Below, in pieces: positions 5,655 to 22,926 of a DNA stretch of 26,836 nucleotides (positions within the stretch are counted from its first letter, which is position 1; the number at the start of each line of letters is the position of its first letter). Location of the stretch: the UHGV virus genome UHGV-0045954. The stretch is one strand, 5' to 3'. The stretch comes from a virus. A program made the translations under genes and the position numbers. A model generated the notes under the pieces. It did no database searches, was not told where the DNA came from, and saw only the letters and a list, made by a program, of their open reading frames with translations.

Positions 5655-7412
5655 TCACAGAATTAACAGGTCCTCATCAGGATCAAGCGTGGACAGAAAG
5701 TCATTCACGCCCCCGCCATTTACCAGAAAGCGGCTCATGGCCGTAAAAAGCGCAACAGGGCCGTCGATTTTGGCTTCAGGCGTGGATTTATTCGGGAAGA
5801 TGTTGTCGTTTTTGTCCGGTTTTACCGTAACGTTAGACATCATCCAGTTCATGACCGGATGATTGCTGTGATGGAAACGCCCGGCATAAACCAGTGATTC
5901 CGTTTCCTTCATGGCCTCTGACAGATTGCGGACCGTCTGCGGAACCTCCACCAGCGGTATCCCTTCTTCAGCCAGTGCCAGGCTGAACTGCATTGCGCTC
6001 CACGGGTCAAATCCCAGTTCCCTGAGGTTTTCACCGCCAATCCATTCCAGTAAGTCACTTTTTATCTGAGCATGATCGATAACATCACCATCCGTCAGGA
6101 TGAGCTTATCCATCTCCGCCCACTTCCGGTAAAGTTCTGCCTGCTGCCGCGAGCATCGCTCCAGCCGTCCTTCCGGAAGCCAGAATTTAAAATCAGCATG
6201 AACATGTCCGTTATCGGTTCGCCAGAGTTTTGCCGCCGCACAGATATCAATCTTATGAGCAAGGTCGACGCCGACCCACATGGGATATGTTTTCAGCTCA
6301 TGTTGTGGAGCAATGTATTCGCACTTCTCCCACTTAATCATATCCATCCAGGCAGATTCGGCAGTGACCCACACATTCATGTGTTTGGTAAAAAAATTCA
6401 CCCGCGCAGAGACCTGCTCCTTCGCTTTTTTCGCCAGACGACGCAGATCATCCCAGCGTTTACAGATGCCCAGGCCAGGATTCGCTTTCTGCCAGACCGT
6501 TTCATCAAACGGATCATCTCCCTCATCGAGCGTGTAAATGATCGCAAAGTAGGAGTCGTCTTTTACCGCGCCCTCCACGTCGCTGTTATAGCCTCGCAAT
6601 ACCTTAATGGCGTAATCGCGCTGCTCGTAGCAAATCCCTTCCTTGTTAAAGCCAGCCGTGGTGATGCCAAATAACAGAGACTGCAGACGGGCACCGGTTG
6701 CCGTTTCCAGAACGTCCCACACGTCACGGGTTTTATGAGCATGCAGCTCATCAATAATGGCGCAGTGGATGTTCAGACCGTCCAGGTTGTTTGCATCCGA
6801 GGAAAGCGGTTCAAATTTTGATGCGCTCTGCTCCTGGTAAATCGCCAGCTTGTTGAAATCAAACAACCGCCCGAGTGTCGACCGGGCTTTTCTGACCATA
6901 TTTTTGGCGTCTTCAAACACAATTCTGGCCTGGTCACGCGTGGTTGCGGCTGAATACACCTCAGCCCCGCATTCACCATCTGCCCCCGTCATATACAGAC
7001 CGATACCCGATGACAGGGTTGATTTTGCGTTTTTACGGGCAACTTCGTTGTATGCTGTCCGGAACCGGCGCACCATCACCGGGCGTCCACTGCCATCGCT
7101 GCGCATGACAACTTCCCCGGTTTCTTCATTCACCAGCGGAATGACAAAACCAAAAATATTAATGAGGATAAACACATGCCAGTCCATCAACTCAATGGGC
7201 TGACCTGCCAGCGCCCCTTTCACATGGGGTACAAATTTGTAGAAATTAAGGATGTGCTGTGCACGGGGTTCACTGAAATAAATCCCCCGCTCTTCGCCGT
7301 ACTTCAGATCATCAAGAAAACGCTGGCAGGCCAGACGGACAAATTCGCCAGCAACAATTTCTCCTGCAACAACACGTTCGGCGTAGCGGATCCCGTCAGC
7401 CACTTTTGCCAT
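5655..7412 (-). CDS. terminase large subunit
   Basis: 585-aa ORF; start overlaps terminase small subunit stop (TGATG); ATPase and nuclease regions typical of terminase. Confidence 0.85.
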   Translation of the reverse strand: MAKVADGIRYAERVVAGEIVAGEFVRLACQRFLDDLKYGEERGIYFSEPRAQHILNFYKFVPHVKGALAGQPIELMDWHVFILINIFGFVIPLVNEETGEVVMRSDGSGRPVMVRRFRTAYNEVARKNAKSTLSSGIGLYMTGADGECGAEVYSAATTRDQARIVFEDAKNMVRKARSTLGRLFDFNKLAIYQEQSASKFEPLSSDANNLDGLNIHCAIIDELHAHKTRDVWDVLETATGARLQSLLFGITTAGFNKEGICYEQRDYAIKVLRGYNSDVEGAVKDDSYFAIIYTLDEGDDPFDETVWQKANPGLGICKRWDDLRRLAKKAKEQVSARVNFFTKHMNVWVTAESAWMDMIKWEKCEYIAPQHELKTYPMWVGVDLAHKIDICAAAKLWRTDNGHVHADFKFWLPEGRLERCSRQQAELYRKWAEMDKLILTDGDVIDHAQIKSDLLEWIGGENLRELGFDPWSAMQFSLALAEEGIPLVEVPQTVRNLSEAMKETESLVYAGRFHHSNHPVMNWMMSNVTVKPDKNDNIFPNKSTPEAKIDGPVALFTAMSRFLVNGGGVNDFLSTLDPDEDLLIL

Positions 7413-7894
7413 CAGTCTCTCGCTTTTAAAAGCTCTGCCAGCGGATCAACATCATCCGGTCCGGCGGTATTTACTTTCGCCCGGCTTGCCGGTGACATAC
7501 CAAACTCTGCAAGCATCGCCCGAATCCGCTTCCAGGCATCAGCCTTCATCGCAGCAGCCGGGTGTGCCTTGATCAGCACATCGCCATTCTGCGTTTCCGT
7601 GCGGTAGGTATAACCCTCAACATCGAGTATTTCGCAGTGATGCCGGTATTCGGTGTAGGCTTCCACCAGTAACTCGAGCGCACGTGCATCGAGCTGAGAA
7701 ATGATCCCTTCCGCATTCAGCTCTTCCGCCATTCGCCTGAACCAGTACTTCCCCTGCGCCCCTAAATGTTGCGGAATTTTAGGGAGACCTTTTTCATCCT
7801 TTTTAGCGGTTTTTTTGGAGTCTTTAACTGGCCGCTTTGAGGGGTTACCTCGTATCAAATGCAGGCGTGGCGGGGTTTTCGGGGGTCCAGACAT
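7412..7894 (-). CDS. terminase small subunit (P27 family)
   Basis: 160-aa ORF immediately upstream of and overlapping the large subunit gene; basic N-terminus. Confidence 0.75.
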   Translation of the reverse strand: MSGPPKTPPRLHLIRGNPSKRPVKDSKKTAKKDEKGLPKIPQHLGAQGKYWFRRMAEELNAEGIISQLDARALELLVEAYTEYRHHCEILDVEGYTYRTETQNGDVLIKAHPAAAMKADAWKRIRAMLAEFGMSPASRAKVNTAGPDDVDPLAELLKARD

Positions 7895-8041
7895 AATCGA
7901 TTTTACCTATCAATCATTTAATCACATTCCAAAAAAAAGTTTTCGAACCTGCGGCGATGCGAGGAAAGGTCAGGCGGCGGTACTGAGCAGCCAGGGTTGC
8001 AGAGATTTGACCTGCCCCTCCCCTACAGATGGGAACTGTTA
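7895..8041. promoter_or_regulatory. candidate cos / packaging-initiation region
   Basis: Noncoding 147 bp between HNH endonuclease and terminase small subunit, GC-rich core (CGGCGATGCGAGG...GGCGGCGG); inferred from HK97-type HNH-cos-terS arrangement. Confidence 0.3.
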
Positions 8042-8392
8042 TCAATTGAGGCGTTCGCGCGCTGTTTTTGCTTTATGACAGGGCCAGCACAGACTCTGCA
8101 GGTTACTGTCTGCATCCGTGCCACCATGAGCTTTCGGAATGATGTGGTCCACAGTTCTGGCTTCAACGGCTCTCCCATTGCGCAGGCAGTTCTGACACAG
8201 ATGATTATCACGCTTCAGTATGCGCGCACGTATGGCATCCCATTTCGAGCCATAGCCACGCTGGTGGCGGCTCAGTCCGCGTTGATGCTGTACCCATCCT
8301 TCGCCACGATGTTTATCGCAGTAACCAGAACTGTCTGTGGTTGTACCTGCACATCCACGCTTACGGCAGGCGCGTGGGATTCGTGGGGGCAT
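8042..8392 (-). CDS. HNH endonuclease (terminase-associated)
   Basis: Start at ATG 8392 (MPPRIPRACRKRGC...) with GGAG RBS; HNH core DHIIPKAHGG, Cys/His zinc ligands; longer start at 8491 possible. Confidence 0.75.
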   Translation of the reverse strand: MPPRIPRACRKRGCAGTTTDSSGYCDKHRGEGWVQHQRGLSRHQRGYGSKWDAIRARILKRDNHLCQNCLRNGRAVEARTVDHIIPKAHGGTDADSNLQSLCWPCHKAKTARERLN

Positions 8393-8614
8393 ATGTACTC
8401 CAATGAAGAAGCCACCGACATAGCCTCCTCCATTCATAGTGAAACTATTTTCATCTACCCAGTAATGAATTCTTTGTAGAGTTGTGATCAATACAACTCA
8501 CTAATGGAGAGGCTTGTCCAACACGTTGGACAAGTTTCCTGTTTGATTTACTGGACACTATAGAAGGACAGAATGCCTTCATCACTCGAATAACATCAAT
8601 TAAGGAGGTTCAAC

Positions 8615-8737
8615 ATGTTTCATTCCACAAATCATCAGGCTGTAATTATGGCTGCATCAGCTTGTGCCACAGACCTTTTCCGCTTCACTTTGAGCCTGAT
8701 TCATTTCTACCTGACCGGCTCGCCTCTATCTTTTTAA
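8615..8737 (+). CDS. possible small protein (40 aa) upstream of bor
   Basis: ATG at 8615 preceded by near-perfect SD TAAGGAGGT at 5-nt spacing; translation MFHSTNHQAVIMAASACATDLFRFTLSLIHFYLTGSPLSF. Confidence 0.3.
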   Translation: MFHSTNHQAVIMAASACATDLFRFTLSLIHFYLTGSPLSF

Positions 8738-8917
8738 TCCCCGCTTTATCCAAATTGCATTGCCAGAATGCCGACAACAGACTGACATTCAAATCCTGAC
8801 TACCTCCAATAGGCTGAGCATCCACCTATATAGTTTTAATTTTCATCAATCCATTTAACTATCGTTTAATTGTTGTCACATAGGATTCTGCCGTTTTTAA
8901 CAATGCAGGATAATAAG

Positions 8918-9211
8918 ATGAAAAAAATGTTGTTTTCTGCCGCTCTGGCAATGCTTATTACAGGATGTGCTCAACAGACGTTTACTGTTGGAAACAAACC
9001 GACAGCAGTAACACCAAAGGAAACCATCACCCATCATTTCTTCGTTTCGGGAATTGGACAGGAGAAAACTGTTGATGCAGCCAAAATTTGTGGCGGCGCA
9101 GAAAATGTTGTTAAAACAGAAACCCAGCAAACATTCGTAAATGGATTTCTCGGTTTTATTACTTTAGGCATTTATACTCCACTGGAAGCGCGTGTGTATT
9201 GCTCACAATAA
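8918..9211 (+). CDS. bor: Bor lipoprotein (serum-resistance moron)
   Basis: 97-aa product MKKMLFSAALAMLITGCAQQ... with lipobox LITGC; strongly resembles lambda Bor; opposite strand to lysis genes as in lambda. Confidence 0.85.
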   Translation: MKKMLFSAALAMLITGCAQQTFTVGNKPTAVTPKETITHHFFVSGIGQEKTVDAAKICGGAENVVKTETQQTFVNGFLGFITLGIYTPLEARVYCSQ

Positions 9212-9242
9212 TTGCATGAGTTGCCCATCGATATGGGCAGCT

Positions 9243-17354: not shown

Positions 17355-17455
17355 CCCCCCCCCCCCCCCCCCCCCCCCCCCNNNNNNNNNNNNNNNNNNN
17401 NNNNNNNNNNNNNNNNNNNNNNNNNNNNNNNNNNNNNNNNNNNNNNNNNNNNNNN
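17355..17455. other. assembly gap: poly-C (27 nt) followed by 74 N
   Basis: Homopolymer then N run in an intergenic position; same style as the gap at 781..910. Confidence 0.9.
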
Positions 17456-21888: not shown

Positions 21889-22456
21889 TAGATAACCAAC
21901 GAAGCTAAGGTTGGTAATTAAGGAGTTCTCCACGGGTGAGGTGGAGTGCGTGCGCCGGACACGGGTGAGCATCCGGCACTGACAGTTTACTGAAAGGATA
22001 TTTCCCTGAAAAGTCAGACCATAACGCGAAAGCGCACGGCGAGGTAGCTGGTTCATAGATAGCCTGTCGTTAAATTTTCGTCGACCGTGCGCTTCCGGTT
22101 GTGGCAATCCGCGAAATGGCGCGGCGGTAAGTATGGCGGGGTTATTCCTTCCCCCGTTGAGGACACCGGGTTGTCAGGTTGACCATACGCTTAAGTGACA
22201 ACCCCACTGCAACGCCCTCTGTTATCAATTTTCTGGTGACGTTTGGCGGTATCAGTTTTACTCCGTGACTGCTCTGCCGCCCTTTTTAAAGTGAATTTTG
22301 TGATGCGGTGAATGCGGCTAAGCGCACGCGGAACAGTTAAAACCAAAAACAGTGTTATGGGTGGATTCTCTGTATCCGGCGTTAATTGTTAACTGGTTAA
22401 CGTCACCTGGAGGCACCAGGCACCGCATCACAAAACTCATTGTTGAGGGCGCGATA

Positions 22457-22833: not shown

Positions 22834-22926
22834 AACAGCACCGTAATAAATATCCAGTTTCATTCTTATATGTCAGCAATGGCAGAGATTTGTTCACCCT
22901 TAAATCTGTGATGAGGTTTACCAATA

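Follow-up and report, generated by a model that had tools for sequence, protein, structure and literature searches.

The T7 phi10 and SP6/K1-5 late units, which are the basis of the pET vectors, consist of a 23-bp promoter, a 5' hairpin, and an AAGGAG(G) Shine-Dalgarno (SD) sequence placed 5 to 8 nt ahead of the ATG. Type I toxins (Hok/Gef, TisB, Ldr, and Ibs) are hydrophobic peptides of 30 to 50 amino acids that are kept off. In the 1990s, phage-triggered suicide cassettes were reportedly engineered with Lactococcus phage phi31 by fusing a phage-inducible promoter to a lethal gene, and in satellites (P4 by P2 Ogr/Cox, the phage-inducible chromosomal islands, and the phage-inducible chromosomal island-like element PLE by ICP1), resident genes are switched on by an incoming phage. 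Here we describe a locus that resembles each of these systems in part. It lies in the virus genome UHGV-0045954, of which the whole analyzed stretch of 26,836 nucleotides is called the window. Positions 8489 to 8737 of the window are probably a self-contained plus-strand expression cassette, antisense to the late operon of the prophage, that could be read only by a foreign RNA polymerase (RNAP). The cassette has the promoter, hairpin, and SD layout of the late units, and ends in a predicted hydrophobic peptide of type I toxin size and composition. As far as we can tell, it is an undescribed element. The best reading, toward which we lean slightly, is that a membrane-active peptide would be made as a defence when a podophage polymerase enters the cell.

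The main feature of the cassette, which had been overlooked in a first-pass annotation of the sequence, is a pair of predicted podophage RNAP promoters, P1 and P2, located upstream of a 40-amino-acid open reading frame (mini-ORF) and both directed toward it. Promoter sets were extracted from the T7, SP6, K1-5, P694 (Berlinvirus), K11, and T3 genomes for scoring with position weight matrices (PWMs), the P694 PWM being made from 16 phage P694 promoters. P1 (CAATACAACTCACTAATGGAGAG) occupies positions 8489 to 8511 of the plus strand and is T7-promoter-like, of the Berlinvirus/T7 type of single-subunit RNAP promoter. From -17 to +6 it reads CAATACAACTCACTAAT followed by GGAGAG, with the predicted start at G8506. 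From -17 to -1, all 17 bases of P1 match a natural promoter of phage P694 (L077 17963-17979), and the +1 to +6 part (GGAGAG) is identical to that of the P694 promoter at 22886. P1 scored 30.1 bits on the P694 PWM (natural range, 23.6 to 37.3; leave-one-out range, 19.2 to 36.6) and 22.4 bits on the T7 PWM. A blastn comparison of a 30-mer around P1 returned 270 phage records, mostly T7-like, with several of the matches at annotated promoters.

P2 (ATTTACTGGACACTATAGAAGGA) occupies positions 8546 to 8568 of the plus strand and is SP6-promoter-like, of the K1-5/K1E type (Vectrevirus, SP6 supergroup). It reads ATTTACTGGACACTATA followed by GAAGGA, with the predicted start at G8563. P2 scored 36.8 bits on the K1-5 PWM (natural range, 26.4 to 37.6) and matches the consensus derived from the promoters of K1-5 itself at every position; the SP6-group consensus tested was ATTTACTGGACACTATAGAAG. 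In the blastn comparison, the P2 stretch matched Vectrevirus (K1-5 and K1E) genomes at 93 to 97% identity over 28 to 31 nt, mostly in unannotated intergenic DNA. SfIV-type relatives carry an SP6-type variant, ATTTAGGTGACACTTTAGAAGGA, in place of P2. The best other PWM site in the rest of the window had no more than 7 bits, and 5 Mb of random sequence gave zero PWM matches of at least 20 bits. Judged by sequence, P1 is a T7-group (Studiervirinae) RNAP promoter and P2 is an SP6-group (Molineuxvirinae) promoter of the K1-5/K1E type. No gene for a single-subunit RNAP is encoded in the window, and a scan of positions 8300 to 9300 for sigma-70 sites found no host-type promoter, the scan being conservative enough that weak promoters could escape it.

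The first-pass annotation had pointed to a palindrome and to a T-rich tract on its 3' side. Both are present as described: the palindrome CTTGTCCAAC-AC-GTTGGACAAG lies at positions 8513 to 8534, and the tract reads TTTCCTGTTTGATTT. Chance does not account for the palindrome: including it, the 26.8 kb contain just two perfect inverted repeats whose arms reach at least 10 nt, compared with a mean of 0.03 in shuffled sequences. It is the core of a 13-pair hairpin (positions 8509 to 8538, plus strand) picked out by a terminator scan. In the predicted P1 RNA, it would form a 13-bp stem from +4, i.e., a 5'-terminal stem-loop, as is found at the 5' ends of the T7 phi10 and phi3.8 RNAs. Among 18 cassette and podophage versions of the hairpin, both bases have changed in 5 of the 9 stem pairs, as in CCAAC/GTTGG and CTCAC/GTGAG. 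The covariation score was 0.282 compared with 0.160 for shuffles (0 of 500 reached 0.282) and no more than 0.094 for slid controls, a result in which a symmetric protein-binding site would covary alike. The U.G pairs in the stem are standard only when the plus strand is read. The pattern of substitutions points to a conserved hairpin with compensatory changes.

The palindrome is homologous to a hairpin located between the stop codon and the promoter ahead of K1-5 gene 18 and SP6 gene 20, and a homologous hairpin is also found ahead of the corresponding gene of Klebsiella phage KpnP_VR702. The homology to the K1-5 gene 18/SP6 gene 20 unit runs from the palindrome on through P2. An 18-bp motif of the palindrome, TGTCCAACRYGTTGGACA, occurs in 3 to 6 copies per SP6-like podophage contig of about 44 kb (L261, L270, L263, and L283). 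These copies lie after stop codons and ahead of promoters or SDs, with one located within a coding region, and they conserve the sequence itself beyond the structure alone. The palindrome, which had been proposed to be a protein-binding site or a plus-strand terminator, is better described as a multi-copy motif of SP6-like podophage genomes than as a generic operator or an ordinary terminator. It may serve to stabilize the RNA, as a site for RNase III, as a barrier to read-through, or as a protein-binding site. The terminator scan match has the tail CTGTTTGATT, in which the U-tract is interrupted, and the podophage copies and the other cassettes have no U-run.

Other identities for this region were tried and rejected. 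A class II T7 terminator (ATCTGTT) on the 3' side of the hairpin was matched only in part (CCTGTTT), and the match is not conserved among the variants. An anti-SD mimic on the late minus-strand RNA that would pair with the SD of the HNH gene was set aside, the conserved features all being read on the plus strand. Rfam searches found nothing relevant in the region, either at the gathering thresholds across the whole window or at E values up to 1 for positions 8380 to 8930.

The predicted P2 transcript has a leader of positions 8563 to 8614 on the plus strand, in which a 5' hairpin (GAAGG..CCUUC, positions 8563 to 8580, 5-bp stem) is followed by an unstructured part and by the SD TAAGGAGGT at positions 8601 to 8609, 5 nt ahead of the ATG at 8615. 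The first-pass annotation had called this SD almost ideal, and it is; AAGGAGG occurs only once in the window with both strands counted. The predicted P1 and P2 RNAs both begin with hairpins, and in both the SD and the AUG are unpaired. The layout of the leader (about 50 nt, AAGGAG, and ATGTT) is shared with K1-5 gene 18 and SP6 gene 20.

The mini-ORF, the putative payload of the cassette, occupies positions 8615 to 8737 of the plus strand and encodes the 40-amino-acid peptide MFHSTNHQAVIMAASACATDLFRFTLSLIHFYLTGSPLSF. The first-pass annotation had proposed the mini-ORF as a real gene and had named lack of frame conservation in related prophages as evidence that would count against it. We found that the SD, the ATG, and an intact ORF were kept in 131 of 131 anchor-bearing loci, with lengths of 32 to 54 codons, mostly 36 to 41. 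In the window type, the C-terminal 16 to 17 codons have a ratio of nonsynonymous to synonymous polymorphism (pN/pS) of about 0.03 to 0.05 in the ORF's own frame. Five of the six variable sites are third positions of the ORF and second positions of an o-spanin gene that overlaps it in antisense, and pS in the o-spanin frame is 0. Since the o-spanin gene is only a relic in most window-type loci, including the window, the C-terminal constraint belongs to the mini-ORF. Frame conservation and purifying selection mark the mini-ORF as protein coding by sequence, with the N-terminal half unconstrained.

The peptides of the cassettes fall into families A (..APAINxIIxLICLLIAKxYGVLQYF), B (MSHIEIIQLIDSYVLLATDII..), and C, the window type (..FTLSLIHFYLTGSPLSF). 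For families A and B, the pN/pS is 0.05 to 0.45 in the part that does not overlap the o-spanin gene. The window peptide is hydrophobic, with a grand average of hydropathy of 0.67, as is every peptide of the families, and the best 19-residue hydrophobicity windows of the sister peptides are 1.5 to 2.4. A tblastn search of 50,697 phage records with two peptide types gave matches confined to temperate phages, and annotated homologues, where there are any, are labelled hypothetical. Two origins of the payload were rejected. A podophage origin was not borne out, the tblastn homologues being found only in temperate phages, and the mini-ORF is not a shortened K1-5 gp18 or SP6 gp20, since the alignment is limited to the SD and ATGTT and the body is unrelated.

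We then analyzed the cassette in other temperate phages. An exact search with the leader and SD gave 67 IMG/VR loci, and a second search anchored in the o-spanin gene (the antisense of QCNLDKAGI) gave many more. Upstream of the o-spanin anchor, 41 sequence clusters were found, mostly with one shared architecture: one to four tandem promoter-shaped elements, usually a hairpin, a strong SD (AAGGAGGT or similar), and an ORF of 32 to 41 codons of which the last 16 or so are antisense to the 3' end of a LysC-type o-spanin gene. The carriers are related temperate phages of E. coli, Shigella, and Klebsiella, and the cassette is always at the same spot. The promoters in the cassettes include T7-like (TAATGCGACTCACTATAGAGAGA, 31.7 bits on the T7 PWM), T3-like (GATTAACCCTCACTATAGG), K11-like (AATTAGGGCCCACTATAGAGAC), phi2.5-like (TATTAAGACTCACTATTAGGAAG), and Berlinvirus-, SP6-, and K1-5-like types. 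A Klebsiella SP6-like type, TAATAGTGGCGAGTATAGAAG, matches Klebsiella podophages; the cognate phages are 45-kb contigs with 3 to 5 co-oriented copies and a homologue of the K1-5 RNAP at 62 to 67% identity.

When seven PWMs were applied with a cutoff of at least 18 bits, 88 distinct 420-nt cassette regions contained 132 promoter matches, all on the cassette strand, while these temperate-phage loci contained 3 matches in their remaining 2.46 Mb (both strands), two of which are the duplicated pair in locus L146. Promoter-like matches are thus about 3,000-fold enriched in the cassette. In L146, a T7-like and K1-5-like pair is doubled in tandem (-535 and -477 nt from the anchor), giving four promoters and one ORF. 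Distinct promoter types are stacked in the same order at the same site. Among cassettes with common flanks and payload, variation is highest at -17 to -8 of the first promoter; in the window type, variation falls at -12 to -10 of P2, and the promoter cores vary less than the flanks.

The window type of cassette was found in 632 of 5,426 complete E. coli genomes (about 12%), including sequence type 131 strain EC958. The Klebsiella type, in which the promoters are K11-like and Klebsiella SP6-like, is found in Klebsiella temperate phages and in only 5 of the 5,426 E. coli genomes. By sequence comparison, the promoter types match the podophages of the carrier's own host (E. coli/Shigella versus Klebsiella). 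The o-spanin anchor matched only 3 species-representative genomes, too few for a host association.

Klebsiella-type cassettes (L096, L120, L078, L094, and others) carry two more promoter-shaped elements, TTTAATGTTACCGGAGTAGGAAC and GATAAGTTACACAATAGAACG, at about -215 and -170 nt from the o-spanin anchor, between the recognized promoters and the SD. These may be orphan promoters of uncharacterized polymerases. An exact 16-mer scan of IMG/VR with the orphan element AAGTTACACAATAGAA gave only scattered single matches, and for the second of the two elements such a scan found no cognate podophage. Many relatives also have a gene for a protein of 270 to 390 amino acids on the cassette strand, past the holin gene and about 2 kb downstream of the promoters; such genes include SfIV gp49 (L002 2405-3320) and are also found in L013, L022, L029, L057, and L071.

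The window is a lambdoid/HK97-like E. coli prophage whose late operon is on the minus strand and includes holin, lysozyme (9701 to 10234), Rz/Rz1 (9243 to 9719, the prophage's own lambda-type pair), terS (7412 to 7894), and terL (5655 to 7412). The HNH endonuclease gene of the HK97-type packaging module is also on the minus strand (8042 to 8392), and the bor/iss lipoprotein gene, annotated by the Prokaryotic Genome Annotation Pipeline (PGAP) as "increased serum survival lipoprotein Iss," is on the plus strand (8919 to 9211). The AT-rich intergenic region noted in the first-pass annotation exists, with a G+C fraction of 0.40 compared with 0.486 across the window. Its left limit had been set by an HNH start at 8491, which is wrong; because PGAP places the start at ATG 8392, the intergenic stretch is 8393 to 8918. 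The cos region probably lies between the HNH stop and the terS start (7895 to 8041); in SfIV, the end of the linear genome is about 58 bp past the HNH gene, where the SfIV authors put cos.

The intergenic stretch is, by alignment, a mosaic of SfIV-like and lambda-like modules that meet at about 8803. Positions 8400 to 8804 align at 85% identity with the interval between the o-spanin and HNH genes in Shigella phage SfIV, and positions 8803 to 9000 are 100% identical to the bor region of lambda, 434, and related lambda-type phages. The lambda-type bor upstream region (8803 to 8918, plus strand, G+C fraction of 0.34) is a separate mosaic module outside the cassette. The first-pass annotation had suggested a comparison with the bor flank of lambda; identity to lambda starts only at about 8803, so the mini-ORF lies outside the lambda-like module. 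An alignment to SfIVp53 showed that the minus strand at positions 8685 to 8804 retains, as a relic, the 3' end of an o-spanin gene of the SfIV/LysC type, ending in DLNVSLLSAFWQCNLDKAGIKKIEASRSGRNESGSK and a stop codon. The relic comprises the last 36 or so codons of the gene and is antisense to the final 17 codons of the mini-ORF. Because the window has its own Rz/Rz1, we consider the o-spanin fragment to be a pseudogene that travelled with the cassette, and the alignment indicates that the cassette moved jointly with the o-spanin 3' end.

If P1 and P2 are active promoters in vivo, the cassette would be silent in a lysogen, because the window has no cognate polymerase and no sigma-70 promoter is evident, and with two podophage RNAP promoters upstream the mini-ORF would be expressed only on infection by such phages. 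Transcription and translation of the mini-ORF would be very high as soon as a T7-like or SP6-like phage has entered and its polymerase is produced. T7 inhibits the host RNAP by means of Gp0.7 and Gp2, and the trigger would coincide with the shutoff of host transcription by the podophage. The small peptide could then damage the membrane or otherwise block the infection, as a suicide or exclusion device, so that sister lysogens would be protected and the prophage would benefit. We infer this defence role from the layout of the cassette, the diversity of its promoter types, and their match with the host. The sequence-level features are solid, and the putative function is a strong inference from them.

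The idea may extend to the whole family. We put at about an even chance the proposal that modular decoy-promoter arrays are an unrecognized class of immune sensor that drives a tiny membrane toxin. Each promoter of an array would be tuned to the RNAP of a different virulent podophage group, and the groups sensed would be T7, T3, K11, Berlinvirus, SP6, K1-5, and Klebsiella SP6-like phages, along with two or more orphan types. Sensing through the invader's own polymerase would work even after the shutoff of host transcription, and in an arms race with the podophage polymerases the arrays would change through the exchange of specificity modules.

Several observations weigh against the defence reading. 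The sigma-70 scan was insensitive, and the bor promoter was also not flagged by it. Because T7-like phages break down the DNA of the host, a response would have only limited time. The hairpin is lost in some cassettes. The invariance of the SD and ATG in the first set of loci is partly a selection effect, because that set was selected with the same leader and SD sequence; the anchor-selected set shows the same retention. The N-terminal 22 codons of the window type are unconstrained (pN/pS of 1.84), and the window peptide is borderline as a transmembrane segment, with a best 19-residue hydrophobicity window of 1.40 (0.90 for the SfIV variant). Searches of Pfam, PHROG, NCBIfam, and PADLOC with the peptides found no family match, toxin and defence families included. 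The mini-ORF is always antisense to the o-spanin 3' end, and this constant overlap could point to an RNA-level or lysis-related role. The promoters may be functional with the transcript, or transcription itself, as the payload instead of the peptide. The RNA could be antisense across the lysis genes, transcription could read through into plus-strand genes (bor here and the morons of 270 to 390 amino acids elsewhere), or the site could be a T7-type replication origin that lets the invader replicate prophage DNA. The constant antisense position relative to the lysis cassette, the lack of a terminator on the 3' side of the mini-ORF, and the frequent plus-strand morons beyond the holin gene are in line with these variants. 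The T7 primary origin consists of two tandem phage promoters (phi1.1A/1.1B) followed by an AT-rich stretch; the region here is AT-rich as well, and in T3 an origin is annotated next to phi1.05. However, the maximal SD, the well-spaced ATG, and a hydrophobic ORF that is under selection and always intact favour translation, the downstream genes vary among relatives while the mini-ORF is constant, and an antisense RNA would be without an obvious target because the lysis genes are silent in the lysogen. We consider a transcript payload unlikely.

That the promoters are nothing but a neutral recombination scar is distinctly unlikely as well. Podophage regulatory DNA would have been captured by illegitimate or short-homology recombination in mixed infections, and the mini-ORF would be an accidental read-through into antisense o-spanin DNA. 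Such an origin would fit the homology of the hairpin, P2, leader, and ATGTT, though not of the ORF body, with the K1-5 gene 18/SP6 gene 20 unit, and it would also fit the free N-terminal half and the decayed hairpins. It does not fit the enrichment of promoters on always one strand, the stacking of independent promoter types in one order at one site, promoter cores that are more conserved than the flanking DNA, promoter types that suit the host's own podophages, or ORFs that are under purifying selection and always intact and hydrophobic. The model of the first-pass annotation, in which a host-type promoter drives the mini-ORF jointly with bor in the lysogen, making it a second moron, with the palindrome as an operator or a plus-strand terminator, is improbable. 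The two genes are indeed on the same strand, lambda bor is expressed in lysogens, the hairpin with its T-rich tail does fit the terminator scan, and weak promoters could have escaped the insensitive sigma-70 scan. On the other hand, bor and its upstream 115 bp are a separate lambda-derived module, many relatives have the mini-ORF and lack bor, and the palindrome and both promoters are podophage motifs. Neither a sigma-70-like site nor a terminator after the mini-ORF was found in the conservative scan of positions 8300 to 9300, and because the hairpin is upstream of the mini-ORF, a terminator there would insulate the ORF, not serve it. Still less probable is a peptide that modulates lysis timing, or the spanin or holin, of the temperate phage, with the podophage-like promoters incidental. 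The constant linkage to and overlap with the o-spanin gene and a small hydrophobic product, as in holins and antiholins, speak for such a role, yet in the window the linked o-spanin is a pseudogene fragment while the mini-ORF is under selection, and the phage's own late transcription cannot express the mini-ORF because the late transcript carries only the complement of this ORF, for which no host-type promoter is evident.

The window contains further features away from the cassette. Two copies of the STnc100 small RNA family are on the minus strand at 11986 to 12174 and 12450 to 12643 (132 and 138 bits), and a transfer RNA gene (12997 to 13069, minus strand) is located just upstream of them on that strand. 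A DicF small RNA (22231 to 22282, plus strand, 76.7 bits) shares the orientation of the cassette promoters and is located about 13.7 kb downstream. Two runs of N, which represent masked or unresolved sequence, are at 806 to 897 and 17382 to 17455, and a C-rich perfect inverted repeat, CCCCCCCCCG, at 780 abuts the first of them.

In the full-text literature searched, the 2005 survey of T7-like promoters by Chen and Schneider not being covered, we found neither phage RNAP promoters in prophages nor polymerase-triggered toxins described. If the defence reading is true, the cassette would represent a new principle of antiviral sensing, in which a DNA sequence that imitates the promoter of the invader takes the place of a sensor protein, and the response is set off by the viral RNAP itself. 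Such a mechanism would account for the ability of a host to respond after T7-like phages have silenced its RNAP, and a defence element of about 250 bp would be invisible to the current gene-based defence finders. Many clinical E. coli and Klebsiella lysogens would be predicted to resist therapeutic phages of the T7, SP6, and K1 types. The cassettes would also be a natural catalogue of orthogonal phage promoters, in which the orphan types point to uncharacterized polymerases. Even without a defence role, exact virulent-phage promoters stacked in temperate phages would be an unreported cross-talk between lifestyles.

Compared with the podophage late units, the cassette is located in a temperate HK97/lambda-like siphophage, and the late region of the window has no phage-type RNAP. 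Unlike those units, it places at least two incompatible polymerase specificities in tandem, and its payload is a 40-amino-acid hydrophobic ORF with no podophage homologue. Phage T3 offers a loose precedent for a heterologous promoter, since its genome has an annotated T7 promoter that is not used by the T3 RNAP (NC_003298; L247 32757-32779). However, that is an isolated site in a related podophage, whereas the cassette is an array that drives a dedicated ORF in a temperate phage.

The cassette shares with the lambda bor-type morons the slot between the lysis genes and cos/terminase and the opposite strand to the late operon. Unlike them, it has no evident host-type promoter, and here bor is an adjacent, independently acquired module. 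The window peptide is small and hydrophobic, as are the type I toxins, but it has no match to a toxin family, no sigma-70 promoter was found for it, and no antisense small RNA was detected. While type I toxins are controlled by antitoxin RNA, control of the cassette would come from promoter specificity. The same prophage also has a classical small-toxin locus, with a sok/hok-type type I toxin-antitoxin RNA match at 16068 to 16243 on the minus strand (112 bits). Satellites differ from the cassette in that the latter is about 250 bp long with one tiny ORF and has no functions for excision, replication, or capsid redirection. The proposed logic is that of the engineered suicide cassettes, in which a lethal gene needs the invader's transcription factor; the prophage cassette, unlike these, is natural and widespread, mimics the promoters of single-subunit RNAPs, and stacks several specificities.

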